Positions 9,933 through 18,164 of a stretch of DNA of 64,000 nucleotides are shown in pieces (within the stretch, counting starts at the first letter, position 1; every line of letters starts with the position of its first letter). Origin of the DNA: Caldisericota bacterium (GTDB lineage: Bacteria; Caldisericota; Caldisericia; JAAYUI01); the NCBI GenBank assembly GCA_029548865.1, contig JAKPMO010000024.1, positions 1 to 64,000 of the forward strand, in the 5' to 3' direction. The position numbers and the translations under genes were made by a program. Below the pieces are notes generated by a model. It was not told where the DNA came from. It did no database searches and saw nothing but the letters and a program-made list of their open reading frames with translations.

Positions 9933-10925
9933 CCGGCTCGCATAAAAACCATTAGGGAGCTTTATTACAAGTCCTTTTATATCAAGAACCGTGATTATCC
10001 CCAACAACGCTTCCGCATTCAGGTCAGTCTTGTCACATATTTCATCAATCCTGCATGGTACCGCACAAGCCAGCAGAATAGCTTTTTCTGTTTCACTTAA
10101 AGATTCATCAGTATAAAGGGTTGTCTTTCCATACAAAGACAGAACATCTGAAGGTGAATCTACAAGCAAAGCACCATCTTTGATAAGCTTATTGCAACCC
10201 TCAAAATTCTGCATGCCAGGAAGTCCAGGACAAGCCAGTACATACCTTCCCAAATCCAGCGCATCCCTAGCTGTTATCAATGCACCGGATGACTTCGGAG
10301 CTTCGATAACAAGGCAAGCCTTTGAGAGGGCAGCAATTATTCTGTTTCTCCATGGGAAAGTCCATCTATCACCTGGAAAATTGGGTGGAAACTCTGAAAC
10401 AATGGCACCCTTTACTGAAATCCTCTTTTTGAGCTCCCTTTGCGTCGCACTTCTGGCCTGGTTTATCCCACACCCAAGAATAGCGATTGTAGGTTTGTCG
10501 GTATCAAGAGCTCCCCAGTGTGAAGCTGAATCAATCCCATCCGCCATCCCAGAAACCACGACAATCCCTGTTTTTGAAAACTCAAAAGCCATATTTCTGG
10601 CAATTCCTATTCCGTGTGGCGAGGCCTTTCTTGTCCCCACCATCGCAATAAGGTCCTGGGTTTCAGGAAGCCCACCAAAAACAAAGAGTGCCGCTGGTGG
10701 GCACTCTAGGTCAAAAAGGTTTTTTGGGTATCTCTCGTCATCCTGGCAAACAAATTCAATGCTCGATGACTTGATTTCAGAAAGACCGGTACTTATGGCT
10801 GTCTCAATCTCCTGCTTGCCAAAATCTTTCAGTATTTCCTCTGGCCCTTTCTCTTTCAATTTTCCCAGGGCCTGCGGTTTCGAGGCAAGCAAATAAGAGA
10901 TAGCCAGCCAGTAATTCCTTTCCAC
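9900..10925 (-). CDS. dprA: DNA-processing protein DprA
   Basis: AMVGTR, VSGMADGIDSASH, FPWRNRIIAALS, SGALITA, GCNKLIKDGA; start placed at GTG 10925 overlapping the upstream TAG. Confidence 0.95.
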   Translation of the reverse strand: MERNYWLAISYLLASKPQALGKLKEKGPEEILKDFGKQEIETAISTGLSEIKSSSIEFVCQDDERYPKNLFDLECPPAALFVFGGLPETQDLIAMVGTRKASPHGIGIARNMAFEFSKTGIVVVSGMADGIDSASHWGALDTDKPTIAILGCGINQARSATQRELKKRISVKGAIVSEFPPNFPGDRWTFPWRNRIIAALSKACLVIEAPKSSGALITARDALDLGRYVLACPGLPGMQNFEGCNKLIKDGALLVDSPSDVLSLYGKTTLYTDESLSETEKAILLACAVPCRIDEICDKTDLNAEALLGIITVLDIKGLVIKLPNGFYASRSFSDTKTGKN

Positions 10926-11182
10926 TAAAGTTTTTTCTGATAGTTGTATGTTAGAACGGCAAGGCCGGTAAACAGCAACATGGTGCCAAAAAGCACCACA
11001 ACCCATTGCTGGAGACCATTATATTTCAGGAGCGGCTTGAGACTTGATGCAAGCCCTACTTTGTCTATTCTTGCGGCACTCTGCATGCCATCAACCAGCT
11101 CGAGCGTCATTATCGCAAGAAAACAGCCAAGTGCAATAAGAACAAGCAGCACCATTACTGCGGTTATTTTCTCTTGCTTCAT
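10925..11182 (-). CDS. Small 2-TM membrane protein, possible accessory subunit of the Rieske/cytb-Flx complex
   Basis: 85 aa with two hydrophobic helices; ATGA overlap with the upstream gene and GGAG RBS. Confidence 0.7.
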   Translation of the reverse strand: MKQEKITAVMVLLVLIALGCFLAIMTLELVDGMQSAARIDKVGLASSLKPLLKYNGLQQWVVVLFGTMLLFTGLAVLTYNYQKKL

Positions 11183-11436
11183 TTTTTCTCCTTTGAGAGC
11201 CACTTGTCAAATAACTTTACTCTTTTGACTACCTTTCCCCTATGGTCTTCTGAGGCGTACATTCCAAAAACCAGAAGAAACATCATGGCCAAAAAGATGA
11301 GGCCAAAAGCGACAAGCTGGACAAAACCGAATGGACCCAGTTCTCCCAACACCTTTGCTGTCTGGACGAGTTGTGCAAGCGAAAGCACGCCAACCAGCAG
11401 GGCCAGGATAAAAATCAGGGTCCATTCATTTTTCAC
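11179..11436 (-). CDS. Small 2-TM membrane protein, possible accessory subunit of the Rieske/cytb-Flx complex
   Basis: 85 aa, two hydrophobic helices and basic C-terminus; GTGA overlap with the cytochrome b stop. Confidence 0.7.
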   Translation of the reverse strand: MKNEWTLIFILALLVGVLSLAQLVQTAKVLGELGPFGFVQLVAFGLIFLAMMFLLVFGMYASEDHRGKVVKRVKLFDKWLSKEKK

Positions 11437-12905
11437 AGACTTTTTACTCCAAGTGCAAGGGCCTTTTCAGCCTTCTTTTTTATAACCCTTCTCCTCCACA
11501 CATATTCAAGGAAGAAGGCAAGAGCAAACACAAACCCATTGAAGAGGAGTATAGTGTATATGTATATATTCCTGTCGGCATCCTTGAATGGTATCCAGTA
11601 AGACGCCAGAGAGCCTATTAGGAAGAAGGTGAGGCCACCAATCGCAAGCGTTGTGTAGGCCGGCCTTCCGGAGGCATTTCGTTGCTCCCTCCTGTCAATC
11701 CACGGAAGGGCAACAAGGAACACGATAAATAACACCGTCAGCAATGGCCCAATGGCACCAGGCAAGAACTTGAGATAGAAATAAACAAACAGAAAGTACC
11801 AGTCTGGCAAGATGTGGTCGGGTGTCTTGACTGTGTTTGGCGGTGGCTCACTGATTGCAGGCAAATACAATATTGCACCAATTATAACAATCGCCAATAT
11901 GGCAAACATGACCCAGTTGAGTTTCGGGCGTTTTTTCCTCGACCTGATAAAATACAACTCTGCGGCGAGGAACATGGCGATTGGCAACAGGTAATGCAAT
12001 ATATTGAACCTTAGAATTGTCGTCTGGCCAACCTGGTGTGCACCAAGACCAATAAACTTGAGCGCGGCACCCAAGCCCAAAGGACCAATACCAGGCAGAA
12101 GATCAACAGTATCAAGCATCTGCGTTCCTACTGTTGTTGCCCAATAAGACCTCTGGTCAAACGGAAGAAGGTAACCGGTTACACCCGAGAATGTTGAAAT
12201 GCAGACAACCAGCGTTGCAATTATCCAGGTTAGTTCTCCTGGTTTTTTGAATTCACCATTGAAATACATCCTAAGCCAGCGAAGCATGAGCAACGCGATG
12301 AAGCAATATGCACCATATCTGTGTATTCCTCTTATCGTTCTGGTTACTGGATTGCCAGAAATGTCTGCAACAGATATGTACGCTTTTGATACAATGACTC
12401 CAAGGTCAGCAACAATTTCTTCCGGGGTTTTGCCTTCCATGGCCAGTATATCCTTGCGCTGGCTGGTTATCGTTGCCCACTTGGTATCAACAAGAGCCTT
12501 TTCTGCATCTGTTGTAAGGGCGGCCTTTTCCTCGTCGCGCTGGGTAATCTCTTCCTGCGTGAGGAGCTCGTCCTCGGTCATCTCGCCAGCATCGATTTTT
12601 ACCCTGAATTCCTCTGCTTCCTTCATTGCCCCTTCAATCGTAAGTCCATGTCCATACATGACTTTTGAAGGATCAACTTTCTCAACAGGCGAGGTGTCAG
12701 GAACATAATAAAATGTCAGCACAATGCCAACGACCACCTGAAGGATGAGGAGGATGTAGAGCATGCCACCAATCCAGTAGAATGGATTTGATTTTTTCTT
12801 TTTTGGTGTCTCTTCATCGAAGATATTGACCTTGAGGCCTCTTATCTTCCACCATCTTGTCCACGATTTTGTCAAGCCGTCAAGCCAGTTTGCAAATTTG
12901 TCCAT
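11433..12905 (-). CDS. Cytochrome b of Rieske/cytb family (8 TM), Qo site retained, heme bH ligands lost, about 100 aa insertion
   Basis: NPFYWIGG, IRGIHRY, TGYLLPFDQRSYWATTVG, RFNILHYLLP, HILPDWYFL, LPWID; GGAGG RBS. Confidence 0.93.
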   Translation of the reverse strand: MDKFANWLDGLTKSWTRWWKIRGLKVNIFDEETPKKKKSNPFYWIGGMLYILLILQVVVGIVLTFYYVPDTSPVEKVDPSKVMYGHGLTIEGAMKEAEEFRVKIDAGEMTEDELLTQEEITQRDEEKAALTTDAEKALVDTKWATITSQRKDILAMEGKTPEEIVADLGVIVSKAYISVADISGNPVTRTIRGIHRYGAYCFIALLMLRWLRMYFNGEFKKPGELTWIIATLVVCISTFSGVTGYLLPFDQRSYWATTVGTQMLDTVDLLPGIGPLGLGAALKFIGLGAHQVGQTTILRFNILHYLLPIAMFLAAELYFIRSRKKRPKLNWVMFAILAIVIIGAILYLPAISEPPPNTVKTPDHILPDWYFLFVYFYLKFLPGAIGPLLTVLFIVFLVALPWIDRREQRNASGRPAYTTLAIGGLTFFLIGSLASYWIPFKDADRNIYIYTILLFNGFVFALAFFLEYVWRRRVIKKKAEKALALGVKSL

Positions 12906-12914
12906 TCTGGCCTC

Positions 12915-13763
12915 CTAAAAAGCCGCCGGCATTGCGGCGATCTGGGCTGATGTGAACACCGGGCCGTCCTGGCAGACGTAGTTGTGTCCAACATTGCATC
13001 TTCCACATTTTCCGCAACCGCAATTCATTCTGGCCTCAAGAGAAGCAAAAATCTTGTCTTTTGGGAACCCTATCTTGTCCAGACCAATGAGGGTGAACTT
13101 AATCATCACTGGTGGCCCTGATATTACAACTGCAGTGTTCTTGAAACCTGGGTCAATTTCAAACAGCAATTTTGACCTATTCTTGAAATTTGGATCATAA
13201 TACTGCCCGACAACACCAACATCTTCTTTCCATGTGCTGTCACCTTTGTCGCATGATCTCTTTACCTCAACATCTTTTACTTTTGCCCATTCAAAAATCT
13301 TGTTTTTAAAGACTTGATCGGCGGGTGTTTTCGCACCATAGAGTATCTCTATCTTGCCGTAGTCAGACCTTTTGTCGAGGGAATAGGTGAGCATGTTGCT
13401 GATGGCAGAGAAGCCAACGCCACCGGCCATATAGCTGATGTTCATTCCCTTAAGTGCGTCCTTCGGGAAGCCATTTCCATAAGGGCCCCTCAAAGTGACC
13501 CTGTCGCCAACTTTCATTCCGTGGAGCTTCTCGGTCACTGCGCCAACTTTCATGATGGTCAGCTCAAGGTGTTCCCTCTTTGTTGGAGTGTTGCCAATGG
13601 ATATCGAGCAGTCGCCAACACCTGGAATTCCAATTATGCAAAACTGGCCAGGGTTATAGTCAAAATTCCCGCCATCCCTTTTGATGTAGAAAGTTTTGAT
13701 ATTTGGCGTTTCCTGCTCGATTTTTTCAATTGTGGCCATCTCTGGCAGATACGGGTTCATCAC
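12915..13763 (-). CDS. FAD/NAD(P)-binding [2Fe-2S] oxidoreductase, FlxA/AsrB/HydG family
   Basis: PGQF, RGPYGNGF, AGGVG, LYGAK, GPPVM, MNCGCGKCGRC...VCQDGPVF. Confidence 0.92.
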   Translation of the reverse strand: MMNPYLPEMATIEKIEQETPNIKTFYIKRDGGNFDYNPGQFCIIGIPGVGDCSISIGNTPTKREHLELTIMKVGAVTEKLHGMKVGDRVTLRGPYGNGFPKDALKGMNISYMAGGVGFSAISNMLTYSLDKRSDYGKIEILYGAKTPADQVFKNKIFEWAKVKDVEVKRSCDKGDSTWKEDVGVVGQYYDPNFKNRSKLLFEIDPGFKNTAVVISGPPVMIKFTLIGLDKIGFPKDKIFASLEARMNCGCGKCGRCNVGHNYVCQDGPVFTSAQIAAMPAAF

Positions 13764-14785
13764 AGCGCACCTCCCAGGGTCTTTAGTGTTTCTGAAAGCG
13801 AGATTCCTGCTGGACAGAGGTCAGAACACCTTCCGCATCCAGTGCAGGCAATTTCTCCGTAGAGTGTCATGTGGTACTGGTACTTGTCCAGAATTTTGTT
13901 TCTGTAGCGCGCGGCAACATCGGGCCTTGGGTTGTGGCCAGAGGCCTCAAGCGAATAGACCGTGAAATGGCAAGAATCCCAACACTTGTCTTTGTTGCAG
14001 GAAGTAGCACCAGTTTTGCGGTCTCTCATTTCGAAGCAGTGGCAAGTTGGGCAGAAGAACGTGCACACGCCGCAGGAGATGCAACCCTGGCTCACCTTTT
14101 GCCAAATCGGGGATTCATAGAGTTTCATGTACTGGCCAGCTTTTGAGGTGTCCAGTTTGAAAATCATCATCGACTCGCAGGCCTTTTTGACTTTTTCCTG
14201 GGTCGCTTTGGCATCTCCACCATCTTCAAATACGGATTTGTTGGCCTCTATAAAAGATTTTCCCTTTTCAGTTGAAACAATGACCTGATAGGAATCACCT
14301 TCCGGAACCAGGAGAATGTCGGAGCCAGCTTCAGAGGCGGGGTGGATTCCAAGCGACGAGCAGGCACATGTTGAGAGCGGTTTTTCACAGGCAATCGCAA
14401 TGATGAGAGTTTTGTCCCTTTTGTCTTTCCAGTATGGGTCTTCAAACGGCTGTTTGCCACCATCCTTGCGGTCCCTTGCAAGGAAGAAATTGTCCAGTAT
14501 CTGGATGCCCCTGGCATCACATGGCCTGACCCCGAAAAGGATGGCCGGTTTTGAGGTATCTGCCTGATGAACCTTGTCGTCTTCTACTTTGTATATCAGT
14601 TCGGTTTGTGGAAAGATCACTTCTTTGGCTGGTGTTGCAGTCCTTATAGTTTTGAGGTCAATCGATTTTATATCTTCAATCCTCTTGAAGTTTGTGACCG
14701 CACCGTTTTTTTGTGGGGCATAAGCAACATGGGTCTTTCTCGATTCATCAATCAGGGAGAGCATTTTTTCTTTTTTGATTTTCAT
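13760..14785 (-). CDS. 4Fe-4S protein, FlxB/AsrA/HydB family
   Basis: FGVRPCDARG, CISCGVCTFFCPTCHC, CWDSC, CTGCGRCSDLCP; ATGA overlap and GGAGG RBS. Confidence 0.92.
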   Translation of the reverse strand: MKIKKEKMLSLIDESRKTHVAYAPQKNGAVTNFKRIEDIKSIDLKTIRTATPAKEVIFPQTELIYKVEDDKVHQADTSKPAILFGVRPCDARGIQILDNFFLARDRKDGGKQPFEDPYWKDKRDKTLIIAIACEKPLSTCACSSLGIHPASEAGSDILLVPEGDSYQVIVSTEKGKSFIEANKSVFEDGGDAKATQEKVKKACESMMIFKLDTSKAGQYMKLYESPIWQKVSQGCISCGVCTFFCPTCHCFEMRDRKTGATSCNKDKCWDSCHFTVYSLEASGHNPRPDVAARYRNKILDKYQYHMTLYGEIACTGCGRCSDLCPAGISLSETLKTLGGAL

Positions 14786-15777
14786 GCCCACCTCCCCAAC
14801 ACTTCTTCAACTTTATAAAGGGCCAGCGGTGTTTTTGCCTTGTCGCTGATTCCAGGTTCAAAGTCCCAAGTTGTTTTTGTCATATAGCCAATCTGTTCTG
14901 TTATTAGATTGAGCGGGATATTCTCAGGGCAGGCCCTTGCACATTCACCACAATTTGTGCATCTGTCAGAAAGGTGGAAATAATGGATGAAATGGTATGT
15001 CAAGATTGAGGCAAGAGAGGTTCCCTTCTGGAGATATGGTTCGGGTAACTTTGGATGGTCCATGATGCAGTTGGTATTGCAGTAACAACCCGGACAGGCA
15101 TCCCTGCAAGCAAAGCACATCGTGCACCTTGAAAGCTGGGAAATAATGTATGCTCTGCGCTCCTCAAAAGGCTTCTGGAGATAAGATTCCATCCACTTTT
15201 CCCAGTTCTTGGTAGGTTTTTTCGGCATGTCATCGGGTAGCAGTTCGTCAACCTCGAGTGCTGATGTATACGGGCAGCGAAGGCACCTTGGGTCATAGTA
15301 ATCTGATTTCACCAGATCGACTTTCTTGCCATCGAGCATTTCTACATGCAATGTTGTTCCGTCATCAGTAATATTTTTGATGTCAGAATCAAGGCCTGAC
15401 CTGACAAGATCAATATCAATGGTGCCGGGGCACTTTACGCCAATAACCCAGAGATTGTCTCTATCGACTTTGTTTTCTGCAACGTTGGCCAGAAGGTTCC
15501 TAGAATCACAGCCTTTGACCATGACACCGAACTTCTGCCCCTTTTTAAGCTCAGGGACATAAAAGGTTTTCCCACCAAGGAGTCTCGAAAGATTCTCTCT
15601 TGAGAAGGAGTTGAAAATCAGAAGGTCTGCTTCTTCATGGGTAGTAGCGACAAATGCTCTGGTTTTTCCAGGCATATCAGCGACTTCCCTCCAGCCGAGG
15701 AAACCAGCAATTTTCCCTGACTTTATGGCTTCTTTTACAATATTCCTGAAATAGGCGAGGGTTTTTTCTGTCATCAT
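14782..15777 (-). CDS. 4Fe-4S protein, FlxC / FdhB-FrhB-C-terminal-like family
   Basis: VKGCDSR, GVKCPG, CLRCP, CTMCFACRDACPGCYC...C, HLSDRCTNCGECARACP. Confidence 0.88.
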   Translation of the reverse strand: MMTEKTLAYFRNIVKEAIKSGKIAGFLGWREVADMPGKTRAFVATTHEEADLLIFNSFSRENLSRLLGGKTFYVPELKKGQKFGVMVKGCDSRNLLANVAENKVDRDNLWVIGVKCPGTIDIDLVRSGLDSDIKNITDDGTTLHVEMLDGKKVDLVKSDYYDPRCLRCPYTSALEVDELLPDDMPKKPTKNWEKWMESYLQKPFEERRAYIISQLSRCTMCFACRDACPGCYCNTNCIMDHPKLPEPYLQKGTSLASILTYHFIHYFHLSDRCTNCGECARACPENIPLNLITEQIGYMTKTTWDFEPGISDKAKTPLALYKVEEVLGRWA

Positions 15778-16181
15778 GCTTCCACCCCCATGCTGTCGAG
15801 TTTGCGCTTCATTGCAGAAATTTCTCTTGTCAAAACACCGTAATCAAGAGGATCTTTTTGAATATAGGAGAGCCTCTCTGGGTCAACACCGAGAGCCTCT
15901 GCAACTGACTGTGCTGCAAAAATCCTGCGCTTTGCGAACATGTTTCCATCAAAATTGTGGCAATCGTTGAGAGGGCAACCATAGATGATGATTGCTCCAA
16001 CACCTTCCACAAGGGCCTTGAAGGCAACAACAGGATTGAGTCTGCCTGTGCAGGAAAGCTTTACAAAGCCAACTTCAGGAAATTTGTCTTTGTGGTTTTC
16101 AAGGTCTTTGCCTTTCAGAGCCGATTCACAATGGAAAACTATTATTTTTCTTTTGATCGGGAGATCTTCTATTGAAGGCAT
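15774..16181 (-). CDS. MvhD/FlxD-like [2Fe-2S] protein
   Basis: IIVFHC, LSCTGR, GCPLNDCH..GN..AKRR, LGVDPERL; four Cys. Confidence 0.9.
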   Translation of the reverse strand: MPSIEDLPIKRKIIVFHCESALKGKDLENHKDKFPEVGFVKLSCTGRLNPVVAFKALVEGVGAIIIYGCPLNDCHNFDGNMFAKRRIFAAQSVAEALGVDPERLSYIQKDPLDYGVLTREISAMKRKLDSMGVEA

Positions 16182-17233
16182 AGGCCTTTTACCTCCTCGA
16201 GTATGACTTTGTTCTCGAAACCTTCTAAGTCAATGACCTGCGGTAAACAGCCAGCAACACAGATTCCACAAGCCTGGCATTTTTTTCTTACAACAAAAGC
16301 AACATCTTTTGTCTTGTTCCTGGATACATTGAATTTCTTTTGTGTTATCGCGTTCTTTGGGCAAAGCGTGATGCAGGTAAAGCACCCAGAACAACGGACA
16401 GGATCAACAACAGCGGCTGTTTTAATCTTCCTGCCAAAGAATGGCAACGCAATCAGAACTGCGATGAGGAACCCCCAGGCACTTGCTGCAATGGTGGGAC
16501 TGCCGAGTCGTATAGTGAACAGCCCTATCCAGTCGAAAACATATTTTCCAGCCTTGAGATCTGTTTTGCCAGCGATTGGGAACAAGCCAACAATCACGGC
16601 AAGAACTCCAAGGAAAATCAATGAGAGGGCAAATGTTGGGATAACTGGCGGTCTGGAAATCCTGGCAAAATGCCATACAAGAAGAGCGAAAACAAGGATT
16701 GGAGCTCCAATATGAAATGCCCTGTAAATGACAAGCAGGGCAACCTCCGTTATCTGGCCTCTTCCAAAAAATTTGAGTATTTCAGATGCTCTTCCATCCA
16801 TCGGAAGAATGTAGCCTGTTATGGTTATAAGTACTGTGAACACCAGCAATGCAACGCCGACAAACCATCCAACCGATCTGGTGCTTGTATGCCTCTGGGC
16901 AAAAAGTTTTCTGAGCATGTGTGCTGCAGCAAAGAGAATCATTGCATCAGCGGCATACCTATGGAGCGTCCTTATGAAAAGGCCATATGGTATTTTGTCC
17001 GACATGATATACATGATCGACTTTTGGGCCTGGTCCAGAGACGGCATATAGAAGAAACTCAGGACAAAACCTGTCAATATCTGGATGAACAGCAAAAGGA
17101 AGGTTATAGAGCCAAGGCTGTTGAGAATGTTGATCGATTCAAAACCTGCCTTTAGGACATCAAAAATTCCCAATGTCCCATTTATGAGAAAATTCAACGG
17201 CTTAAAAGGGCTATAGGATTTGCTTGGGCTCAT
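16169..17233 (-). CDS. Diheme cytochrome b fused to C-terminal 2x[4Fe-4S] ferredoxin; Qo site degenerate
   Basis: Four His (IRTLHRY, AAHML, AFHIG, VWHFA; two pairs 14 apart), TGYILP; CSGCFTCITLCP and CQACGICVAGCLP; start placed at MSPSK. Confidence 0.92.
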   Translation of the reverse strand: MSPSKSYSPFKPLNFLINGTLGIFDVLKAGFESINILNSLGSITFLLLFIQILTGFVLSFFYMPSLDQAQKSIMYIMSDKIPYGLFIRTLHRYAADAMILFAAAHMLRKLFAQRHTSTRSVGWFVGVALLVFTVLITITGYILPMDGRASEILKFFGRGQITEVALLVIYRAFHIGAPILVFALLVWHFARISRPPVIPTFALSLIFLGVLAVIVGLFPIAGKTDLKAGKYVFDWIGLFTIRLGSPTIAASAWGFLIAVLIALPFFGRKIKTAAVVDPVRCSGCFTCITLCPKNAITQKKFNVSRNKTKDVAFVVRKKCQACGICVAGCLPQVIDLEGFENKVILEEVKGLCLQ

Positions 17234-17235
17234 AG

Positions 17236-17793
17236 TCACACCTTTTCCACTGTTATTGCACCAGAACCTTGATCCCATTCCACTTTCCAGGGTTTAAGGG
17301 CTGATGGAGGCGGGCCTGCAATGACATTTGCGGTCACTGGGTCAAAGAAACCGTCATGACAACGACAGTGCCAGTTGTTCGAAACCGAGTCCCAGTAAAT
17401 AACGCATGCAAGATGGGTACATTTTGCATCCCAGGCGTGGAGTTTACCTTCCTTGTCCTTGATCAATATTCCTGGATTGCTGATCTTTACTGGTTTAGTT
17501 GGAATCGAAGTGTCGATAGTGACAATTTCAAATGAATAGCCAAGCATTTCTTTCATCGAGTTGTAGTTAGCTTCAACATCCGCAAAGCTTGTCCCGCCAC
17601 CGGCAAGCATTGGTTCTCTCATACTCGAGAGAACAACCCTCGCTACAGATGGTGGTGGAATTGCCAGACCAAGTTTACCAAAAGGCTTCAATAACCTTAG
17701 TACTGGTGAAATCGCCCCTGCGAGCAAGCCCAGGAGCGGCAAGCCTAGAAGGACCTTGAGCAATTCTCGTCTTGTAACCTCTTTTTGACTCAC
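17236..17793 (-). CDS. Rieske [2Fe-2S] protein with Tat-type membrane anchor
   Basis: TRRELLK plus hydrophobic helix, CTHLAC, CRCHDGFFD, GPPP; GTG start with GGAGGA RBS. Confidence 0.95.
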   Translation of the reverse strand: MSQKEVTRRELLKVLLGLPLLGLLAGAISPVLRLLKPFGKLGLAIPPPSVARVVLSSMREPMLAGGGTSFADVEANYNSMKEMLGYSFEIVTIDTSIPTKPVKISNPGILIKDKEGKLHAWDAKCTHLACVIYWDSVSNNWHCRCHDGFFDPVTANVIAGPPPSALKPWKVEWDQGSGAITVEKV

Positions 17794-17827
17794 GCTGTCC
17801 TCCGAATTGAGAATTTGCATAGACTCA

Positions 17828-18111: not shown

Positions 18112-18144
18112 AAAAAACCGGGGACTTTTTTGGCCCCCGGTTTT
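18112..18144 (-). terminator. Intrinsic terminator after groEL
   Basis: AAAACCGGGG...CCCCGGTTTT hairpin followed by a T-run on the minus strand. Confidence 0.85.
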
Positions 18145-18164
18145 CTGTTCCAAACTTGTCAAAA

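Follow-up and report, generated by a model that had tools for sequence, protein, structure and literature searches.

A 64,000-nucleotide stretch of a Caldisericota bacterium (GenBank assembly GCA_029548865.1, contig JAKPMO010000024.1, positions 1 to 64,000; hereafter the window) encodes an operon in which a six-helix cytochrome b, cytbB, runs past its helix F into a 2×[4Fe-4S] ferredoxin domain of the type found at the C terminus of HdrA, followed directly by the gene for an MvhD-like [2Fe-2S] protein. The operon also encodes a second cytochrome b, cytbA, a Rieske protein, and three soluble proteins that resemble FlxC, FlxB, and FlxA. We consider it probable that cytbA and cytbB constitute an asymmetric pair that links menaquinone to NAD(H) by way of the ferredoxin, MvhD, and Flx proteins, with heme bH of cytbB wired to the NAD(H) chain. 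The combination of a cytochrome b with 4Fe-4S and MvhD domains has been in print since 2014 and is uncharacterized, and the Caldisericia operon is a new version of it; the interest therefore lies in the operon and not in the domain alone.

Results

Domain architecture of cytbB

In cytbB, the LPFFG motif at the end of helix F (residues 263–267) is followed in the translation by CSGCFTCITLCP and then by CQACGICVAGCLP. When residues are numbered from the start at position 17233, which was set by a ribosome-binding site and by relatives of 354 amino acids, the cluster ligands are Cys281, Cys284, Cys287, and Cys291 and Cys319, Cys322, Cys325, and Cys329. Pfam places Cytochrome_B at residues 33–146 (E = 1e-24) and the 4Fe-4S dicluster family Fer4_9, above its cut-off, at residues 280–330. 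The four heme histidines and the eight cysteines do not vary across the 16 Caldisericia rows, the window included, and this conservation rules out both a frameshift and a chance fusion or motif. The linker from the helix F proline to the first cysteine is 17 residues long in every one of 24 Caldisericia rows.

The AlphaFold2 model of cytbB, built from a 133-row alignment (predicted local distance difference test (pLDDT) 86.7, predicted template modeling score (pTM) 0.84), is composed of helices A–F, a ferredoxin fold with a β-hairpin insert, and a terminal helix, residues 341–353; helices G and H are missing. A first-pass annotation of the window, made from the letters alone, had proposed that a 2×[4Fe-4S] ferredoxin replaces the last helices of the cytochrome, and the Pfam matches, the translation, and the model agree with it. 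The span it gave, 16169..16440, does hold the domain, but the upper edge falls inside the end of helix F, and the ferredoxin proper occupies about 16172–16432.

Residues 35–268 of the model superimpose on residues 28–309 of mouse cytochrome b (Z 21.6, root-mean-square deviation (rmsd) 3.0, 229 aligned), and in the bc1 topology mouse residue 309 marks the matrix-side end of helix F. Lysine and arginine are more abundant in the predicted loops of the negative (N) side than in those of the positive (P) side in 131 of the 133 alignment rows, with a margin of only 1 in the window. The ferredoxin domain is accordingly predicted to sit on the cytoplasmic side, as the first-pass annotation had it, and a P-side location is rejected on the basis of the structure alignment together with the positive-inside bias.

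An HdrA-type ferredoxin

The C-terminal part of cytbB displays the features of the HdrA C terminus: two CxxCxxCxxxC motifs, a terminal helix, an end about 25 residues past the last cysteine, and MvhD encoded next. The tails of Caldisericia HdrA proteins end 25–28 residues past the last cysteine and share an IDLxGF-helix pattern with cytbB. Against the NCBIfam HdrA2-MvhD model, cytbB residues 273–349 (profile 571–638) and MvhD residues 12–133 (profile 649–773) align in register, both far under cut-off. In a profile of 35 natural fusions, positions 276–372 match residues 557–651 of the 654 residues of HdrA (5odc_A; the last 95 residues), and positions 378–501, six positions past the HdrA match, align with residues 5–130 of MvhD (5odc_D). 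Scored with three profiles of cytochrome-borne ferredoxins, 17 HdrA C-terminal domains reach medians of 61–67 bits, as compared with 22–28 bits for 12 other ferredoxins. A phmmer search of the PDB ranks polyferredoxins above HdrA by summed score, and among the alignments shown the best single stretch is that of HdrA (33 bits versus at most 25.6). Fold searches with the whole model are dominated by the membrane domain and return generic ferredoxins (best Z 8.7, rmsd 1.2, 55 aligned), with HdrA not among the matches listed. By its sequence, the ferredoxin of cytbB is of the HdrA C-terminal type; the profile matches, the tail pattern, and the bit scores thus bear out the earlier assignment.

The phylogeny of the ferredoxin against HdrA C-terminal domains, by which the first-pass annotation had proposed to check a graft from HdrA, covers 96 domains and 84 columns. 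In this tree, the Caldisericia clade, the other cytochrome-borne clade, and several HdrA groups form an open polytomy (90/82), with long branches flagged; one row labeled class II (L060) is a Caldisericia-like locus. The profile scores conflict, as the Caldisericia profile favors HdrA (median 61 versus 49) and the class II profile favors Caldisericia (72 versus 61). Given this polytomy and the long branches, one graft and two are indistinguishable, and inheritance is not separated from a renewed graft from a local HdrA.

According to published descriptions of Hdr complex structures, MvhD and the C-terminal domain of HdrA make up a single mobile arm that moves as a unit (PMC12350162, PMC13580544). 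The window's host also encodes, in an hdr-mvh locus, a polyferredoxin of 221 residues (L139:5368-6827, contig C19) that has the same HdrA-type tail and lies directly before a second MvhD-like gene, so that the ferredoxin–MvhD junction is used three times in the genome.

Linkage of the ferredoxin to MvhD

The cytbB stop and the mvhD start overlap by exactly 13 nucleotides, the figure given in the first-pass annotation, and the four cysteines of MvhD are invariant in all 55 split proteins. Single-chain fusions occur in nature: cytochrome b, Fer4, and FlpD are annotated on one chain in 14 of 97 sequence-search matches, and a domain scan of the long relatives found all three on one chain in 13 of 14. 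Fusion proteins also head a profile search of representatives at 50% identity, although not all of its 981 matches at E ≤ 1e-30 are fusions. AlphaFold2 folded a cytochrome b–ferredoxin–MvhD fusion of 527 residues as one unit (pLDDT 94.2, pTM 0.92), and the high pTM suggests a fixed arrangement of the three parts, that is, a predicted rigid packing. These fusions and their model support the physical link between ferredoxin and MvhD that had been claimed for the window. Covariation between cytbB and MvhD (mutual information with average product correction, 225 paired rows, effective number 147) gave top pairs that are gap and lineage artifacts.

Fused genes adjoin genes of the COX1 family and SCO genes. 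Many of the single-chain fusions are of about 690 residues (P0103, P0111, P0119) and have an additional C-terminal helix followed by a domain that matches no Pfam family but contains a conserved HM...C motif; L075, L076, L079, and L133 are among the loci concerned.

Complementary loss in cytbA and cytbB

The two cytochromes b of the operon differ in what they have kept. In cytbA, the PDWY motif, the cd1 helix, and the bL ligands His195 and His304 are retained, and the bH ligand positions are occupied in the window by Arg209 and Tyr318. These two positions, which face His100 and His202 in an alignment to cytochrome b6, hold arginine and tyrosine or phenylalanine, and no histidine, in 16 of 16 Caldisericia rows. 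The metagenome counts given here and below come from a scan from which the best 80 of 425 confirmed, many of them near-copies, were used (77 loci besides the three closest); among them, no bH histidine was found in the 50 open reading frames (ORFs) labeled cytbA, of which 5 and 3 are gapped at the two positions.

In cytbB, the cd segment is shortened to 33–38 residues in Caldisericia, as compared with mostly 52 in other B proteins and 60 in cytbA. Its Qo motif reads FDWI in the window and FDW in the window's family and is absent from the rows of two further families, f5 and f6. The P-side quinone elements retained in stand-alone fusions are lost from Caldisericia cytbB. No one cytochrome b holds the Qo motif, bL, and bH together, these features being distributed over cytbA and cytbB. 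By itself, cytbA offers no exit for the bL electron, and cytbB lacks a good quinol site; the simplest reading of the ligand pattern is a heterodimer with bL–bL transfer, and we infer that the two proteins likely form one.

An acidic insertion in the A–B loop of cytbA, predicted to lie on the outer side (12340-12710 of the window), comprises 123 residues without CxxCH; its counterpart measures 288–321 residues in the other genera of the family and 27–28 in f5 and f6 (loci including L039-L043 and L053). It is possibly a docking stalk for an outside partner. A cytochrome c hidden in this insertion or beside the assembly genes was ruled out, as no CxxCH is present.

The operon and its conservation

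The nine genes of the operon, all on the minus strand, overlap or lie no more than 9 nucleotides apart, with the Rieske gene 2 nucleotides upstream of cytbB (Table 1). MvhD/FlxD is encoded together with two Fe-S subunits and one subunit of the FAD/NAD type; the names FlxC, FlxB, and FlxA are labels from Flx nomenclature and not from a Flx-specific model. None of the operon genes encodes HdrB, HdrC, or the flavin domain of HdrA; a separate hdr-mvh locus is on contig C19. FlxABCD-HdrABC has been described, with FlxA as the predicted NADH dehydrogenase (PMC4759654).

Table 1. Features of the cytbB operon in the window
Feature	Position	Strand	Remarks
Rieske [2Fe-2S] protein	17236..17820	minus	twin-arginine signal TRRELLK; G-F signature, predicted low-potential
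cytbB	16169..17233	minus	six-helix cytochrome b (A–F) fused to ferredoxin, 354 residues; His91/105/174/188
2×[4Fe-4S] ferredoxin domain, HdrA C-terminal type, with terminal helix	16169..16432	minus	cytbB residues 268–354
MvhD/FlxD-like [2Fe-2S] protein	15774..16181	minus	Cys18/44/69/74 retained; 13-nt overlap of its start with the cytbB stop
FlxC-like Fe-S protein	14782..15777	minus	331 aa, 15 Cys; label from position and Flx nomenclature
FlxB-like / AsrA / sulfhydrogenase-beta Fe-S protein	13760..14791	minus	from family searches
FlxA-like / AsrB FAD- and NAD-binding protein with [2Fe-2S] motif	12915..13763	minus	from family searches
cytbA, full-length cytochrome b	11433..12905	minus	PDWY, intact cd1 helix, acidic A–B loop insertion
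Two-helix membrane protein, 85 aa	11179..11436	minus	conserved after cytbA; no Pfam/NCBIfam match
Two-helix membrane protein, 85–92 aa	10925..11203	minus	only in the window's family; no Pfam/NCBIfam match

The closest relatives of the operon are in Caldisericia. Full-length cytbB matches are found in 23 of the 93 genomes of the phylum: in 11 of 11 of the window's family, 1 of 2 of f5, 11 of 13 of f6, and none of the 67 others. Sixteen operon regions from 15 of these 23 genomes were compared. The seven-gene order Rieske-cytbB-MvhD-FlxC-FlxB-FlxA-cytbA is preserved in all 14 regions on single contigs, which represent two families, and is spread over two contigs in the fifteenth genome, of a third family. 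Distant copies are 24–44% identical.

The operon ends with the two small two-helix membrane proteins (10925-11436), and some loci without Flx likewise have small membrane ORFs, placed there between cytbA and cytbB; the two proteins may replace helices G and H of cytbB. A strong terminator-like hairpin at 18112-18146 follows groEL upstream of the operon, and a weak hairpin with a T run at 12923-12940 overlaps the end of flxA just ahead of cytbA. The terminator scan found 16 sites where 10.0 were expected, which makes it weak evidence, and the promoter scan gave no signal (10 sites versus 11.0 expected).

Relatives outside Caldisericia

In Magnetospirillum magneticum and Turneriella parva, Kao & Hunte 2014 described cytochromes b that bear 4Fe-4S and MvhD domains as the "PDWF-FeS clade"; in their account the corresponding clusters contain no Rieske gene (PMC4122944). 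Dibrova et al. 2017 assign the proteins of the same organisms to a subfamily H, with all four histidines and a function given as not established (PMC5600118). In the metagenome loci with room for the neighbor in question, a separate mvhD is present in 53 of the 54 not flagged as fused, cytbA occurs with cytbB in 35 of 36 split loci, and genes for a Rieske protein and a di-heme cytochrome c accompany 29 of 30. Neither FlxB nor FlxC was found in any of the 35 loci outside Caldisericia with at least 3 kb downstream, and the sole Flx-like match among them is an NAD-binding fragment beside a fused protein.

A quick tree of the membrane domain, with the ferredoxin cut off (95 rows, midpoint root, no bootstrap, named members of Kao & Hunte not included), places all 57 ferredoxin-bearing proteins on one side of a branch with 99% support in the Shimodaira–Hasegawa-like approximate likelihood ratio test (SH-aLRT), and all 19 cytbA proteins form one clade (97% SH-aLRT). 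The first-pass annotation had read the ferredoxin as an adaptor made for the Flx proteins. Such an Flx-specific graft is ruled out, since most relatives carry the ferredoxin without Flx genes nearby and the ferredoxin-bearing cytochromes stand together in the tree. Flx therefore looks like a Caldisericia-specific plug, added to a cytochrome b–ferredoxin–MvhD socket and an A/B pair that are common to several lineages. Neither a Rieske/cytochrome b operon with Flx genes nor a pair composed of one bH-less and one Qo-less cytochrome b was found in the openly accessible literature searched.

Rieske potential and host context

All 16 Caldisericia Rieske proteins have a G-F signature, and all 38 from loci without Flx have S-Y or S-F. 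Potentials of about +150 mV are given for G-F and of at least 260 mV for other signatures (PMC4122944). In the window's family, the cluster ligands of the Rieske protein are intact and its signal is of the twin-arginine translocation (Tat) type. Anammox Rieske proteins are reported to measure more than +300 mV, and a potential of −475 mV is suggested for anammox bL (PMC12954380). Applying the symmetry rule of that paper to menaquinone at −70 mV, we arrive by our own arithmetic at about −290 mV for the Caldisericia bL. As NAD+ lies at −320 mV, its reduction from this heme across a charged membrane would be uphill, which favors NADH as the donor; within the favored reading, NADH oxidation is given a slight preference over NAD+ reduction.

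The window's host encodes TatC and has genes for cytochrome c assembly, genes resembling MenA and MenG, and a nuo cluster without the NADH module. Within the three operon families, 23 of the 26 genomes have a MenA-like gene, as compared with a single weak match among the other 67; for cytochrome c assembly genes, the corresponding counts are 25 of 26 and 0 of 67. Three adjacent secreted proteins (L138:5418-8786; contig C19, 51–55 kb), each with a copper-amine-oxidase N-terminal-like domain and one CxxCH, are the most plausible candidates for a cytochrome c among the CxxCH ORFs of at least 100 residues; one of the three is present in 10 of 11 genomes of the window's family.

The nuo cluster, which lacks NuoEFG, adjoins F-type ATP synthase genes at about 167–182 kb of contig C16 (gene names read by eye). 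Genomes of f5 and f6 mostly have a single CcmF-like gene without the neighboring ccm genes of the window's family (L162-L164, L167, L169, L170), which may serve, as one guess, in heme trafficking.

Discussion

Proposed mechanism

The domain order, the cofactor ligands with their complementary loss, and the conserved gene order are read directly from the sequences, and they are consistent with the following path. Electrons would pass between NAD(H) and FlxA, FlxB, FlxC, the [2Fe-2S] cluster of MvhD, the two [4Fe-4S] clusters, and bH of cytbB, and from there through bL of cytbB and bL of cytbA to the menaquinol site of cytbA, the Rieske protein, and an outside carrier. The ferredoxin, predicted to be cytoplasmic, likely binds the MvhD of the adjoining gene and likely carries electrons between bH and FlxC-FlxB-FlxA. 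cytbB, with bL and bH but no proper quinol site, likely pairs with cytbA, which has a quinol site and bL but no bH; given this complementary loss, electron transfer from one bL heme to the other would be obligatory. Of the two electrons of menaquinol oxidized at cytbA, the Rieske protein would take one, and the second would cross to bH of cytbB, where NADH would supply the further electron needed for menaquinone to be re-reduced nearby. The net result would be a half Q-cycle, fed by NADH, through which electrons are exported and a proton-motive force is built.

In its fullest form, which we put forward only tentatively, the proposal describes a heterodimeric complex III with obligatory bL–bL transfer and entry of NADH at the inner heme. 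Such an enzyme would be a one-piece NADH:outside-acceptor oxidoreductase, a dehydrogenase-fed Q-cycle in a fermenting anaerobe without a known terminal oxidase, and a plug-in of the wider family with the ferredoxin–MvhD socket.

Several observations weigh against this assignment. An NADH-fed Q-cycle requires a quinone-reducing site at bH of cytbB, and cytbB has no recognizable Qi site: the heme ci cysteine is missing, and the D–E linker is short and lacks the His/Asp pair that characterizes the Qi site in bc1-type complexes. MvhD in Hdr complexes is described as handing electrons to a flavin, so that the C-terminal clusters need not lie on the path from MvhD. As for a terminal acceptor, no cytochrome c gene is present in the operons, and neither cytochrome bd, COX1, a molybdopterin enzyme, nor hemB was found in the 93%-complete genome. 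The twin-arginine motif is absent from all eight Rieske N termini of f5 and f6 (L044-L051), in which the cluster ligands are intact, and TatC is found in 0 of 15 f5 and f6 genomes versus 10 of 11 in the window's family. The Rieske potentials are inferred from a motif, not measured, and the kin genomes are non-independent samples that amount to three lineages at most.

Alternative readings

The absence of a recognizable Qi site suits a flow in the opposite direction, in which menaquinol from the 11-subunit complex I would be bifurcated at cytbA; one electron would leave by way of the Rieske protein, and the other would travel through bL of cytbA, bL and bH of cytbB, the ferredoxin, MvhD, and Flx to reduce NAD+. 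A nuo cluster without NuoEFG fits such a scheme, a precedent has been published, as a proposal, for anammox bacteria (PMC12954380), and the relatives without Flx, with their S-Y or S-F Rieske proteins and di-heme cytochromes c, suit it well. In Caldisericia, however, the uniform low-potential Rieske signature contrasts with the anammox potentials, and a high-potential acceptor enzyme was not found in the genome; we regard NAD+ reduction here as possible but unlikely.

An arrangement of separate modules, in which cytbB-MvhD-Flx would be an NADH:menaquinone oxidoreductase and cytbA with the Rieske protein a one-heme quinol oxidase, dispenses with the heterodimer altogether. Chains of cytochrome b, ferredoxin, and MvhD do occur without Rieske or cytbA, so the B module can stand alone; cytbA by itself, however, has no exit for the bL electron, and the near-constant pairing of A with B in the split metagenome loci, the single cytbA clade, and the loss from Caldisericia cytbB of P-side quinone elements kept in stand-alone fusions make this arrangement improbable. 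Least probable of all is a ferredoxin that serves mainly as a docking or shuttle arm, as in HdrA, with its clusters off the line to bH and electrons entering the membrane by a different route, from MvhD or a soluble ferredoxin. The Hdr arm is described as mobile and its MvhD cluster as a donor to flavin, and Flx is missing from most relatives; against such a role stand the retention of all eight cysteines, the constant linker length, and the pTM values, which suggest a fixed packing on the membrane domain. The NADH-linked A/B pair is the reading that we prefer.

Comparison with known systems

Like cytochromes bc1 and b6f, the Caldisericia operon encodes the helix A–F fold, a Rieske subunit, and, in cytbA, the PDWY motif. 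Unlike in those complexes, helices G and H of cytbB are replaced, no cytochrome c1 or f gene is present, and the Qo motif and bH never occur in one Caldisericia cytochrome b. Two questions have long occupied the field: whether electrons pass from one bL heme of a bc1 dimer to the other, and how reductants of the cytoplasm feed b6f-type complexes on their inner side. With the quinol site in one protomer and bH with a fused Fe-S exit in the other, evolution has apparently made an asymmetric construct of its own, and the water-soluble NAD(H) handle would make the A/B pair easy to assay. The operon would also join two fields by setting the Hdr/Flx arm of flavin-based bifurcation on a quinone-bifurcating core; in the fullest form of the proposal, the same ferredoxin–MvhD socket would couple quinone bifurcation to various cytoplasmic carriers.

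The genes of hdr-flx operons follow the order D-C-B-A. HdrABC-FlxABCD (Ramos et al. 2015, via PMC4759654) and the HdrA-MvhD arms of methanogens are described with the same set of an HdrA-type ferredoxin, MvhD, Fe-S proteins, and an FAD/NAD protein. In Caldisericia, by contrast, a membrane cytochrome b stands in place of the HdrA flavin domain, HdrB, and HdrC, and any bifurcation would therefore be quinone-based.

The anammox complexes Kuste4569-4574 and Kustd1480-1485 (PMC12954380) are described as similarly combining a Rieske/cytochrome b core with a putative cytoplasmic NAD(P) oxidoreductase in a menaquinone context. They contain a four-helix b6 with subunit IV, heme cN, multiheme cytochromes c, and a high-potential Rieske protein, whereas the Caldisericia operon has two different long cytochromes b, a fused ferredoxin, an MvhD-Flx wire, a low-potential signature, and no cytochrome c.

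In architecture, cytbB resembles the PDWF-FeS clade, or subfamily H, in which a four-histidine cytochrome b likewise continues into a non-Rieske 4Fe-4S domain with MvhD next. The membrane domain of cytbB groups with those of the cytochrome b–FeS–MvhD fusions, the match to the named members of the paper being by architecture only. In Caldisericia, unlike in that clade, MvhD is encoded by a separate, overlapping gene, the PDWF/PDWY Qo motif of cytbB is eroded, and the operon adds a Rieske gene, a second cytochrome b without bH, and FlxC-B-A.

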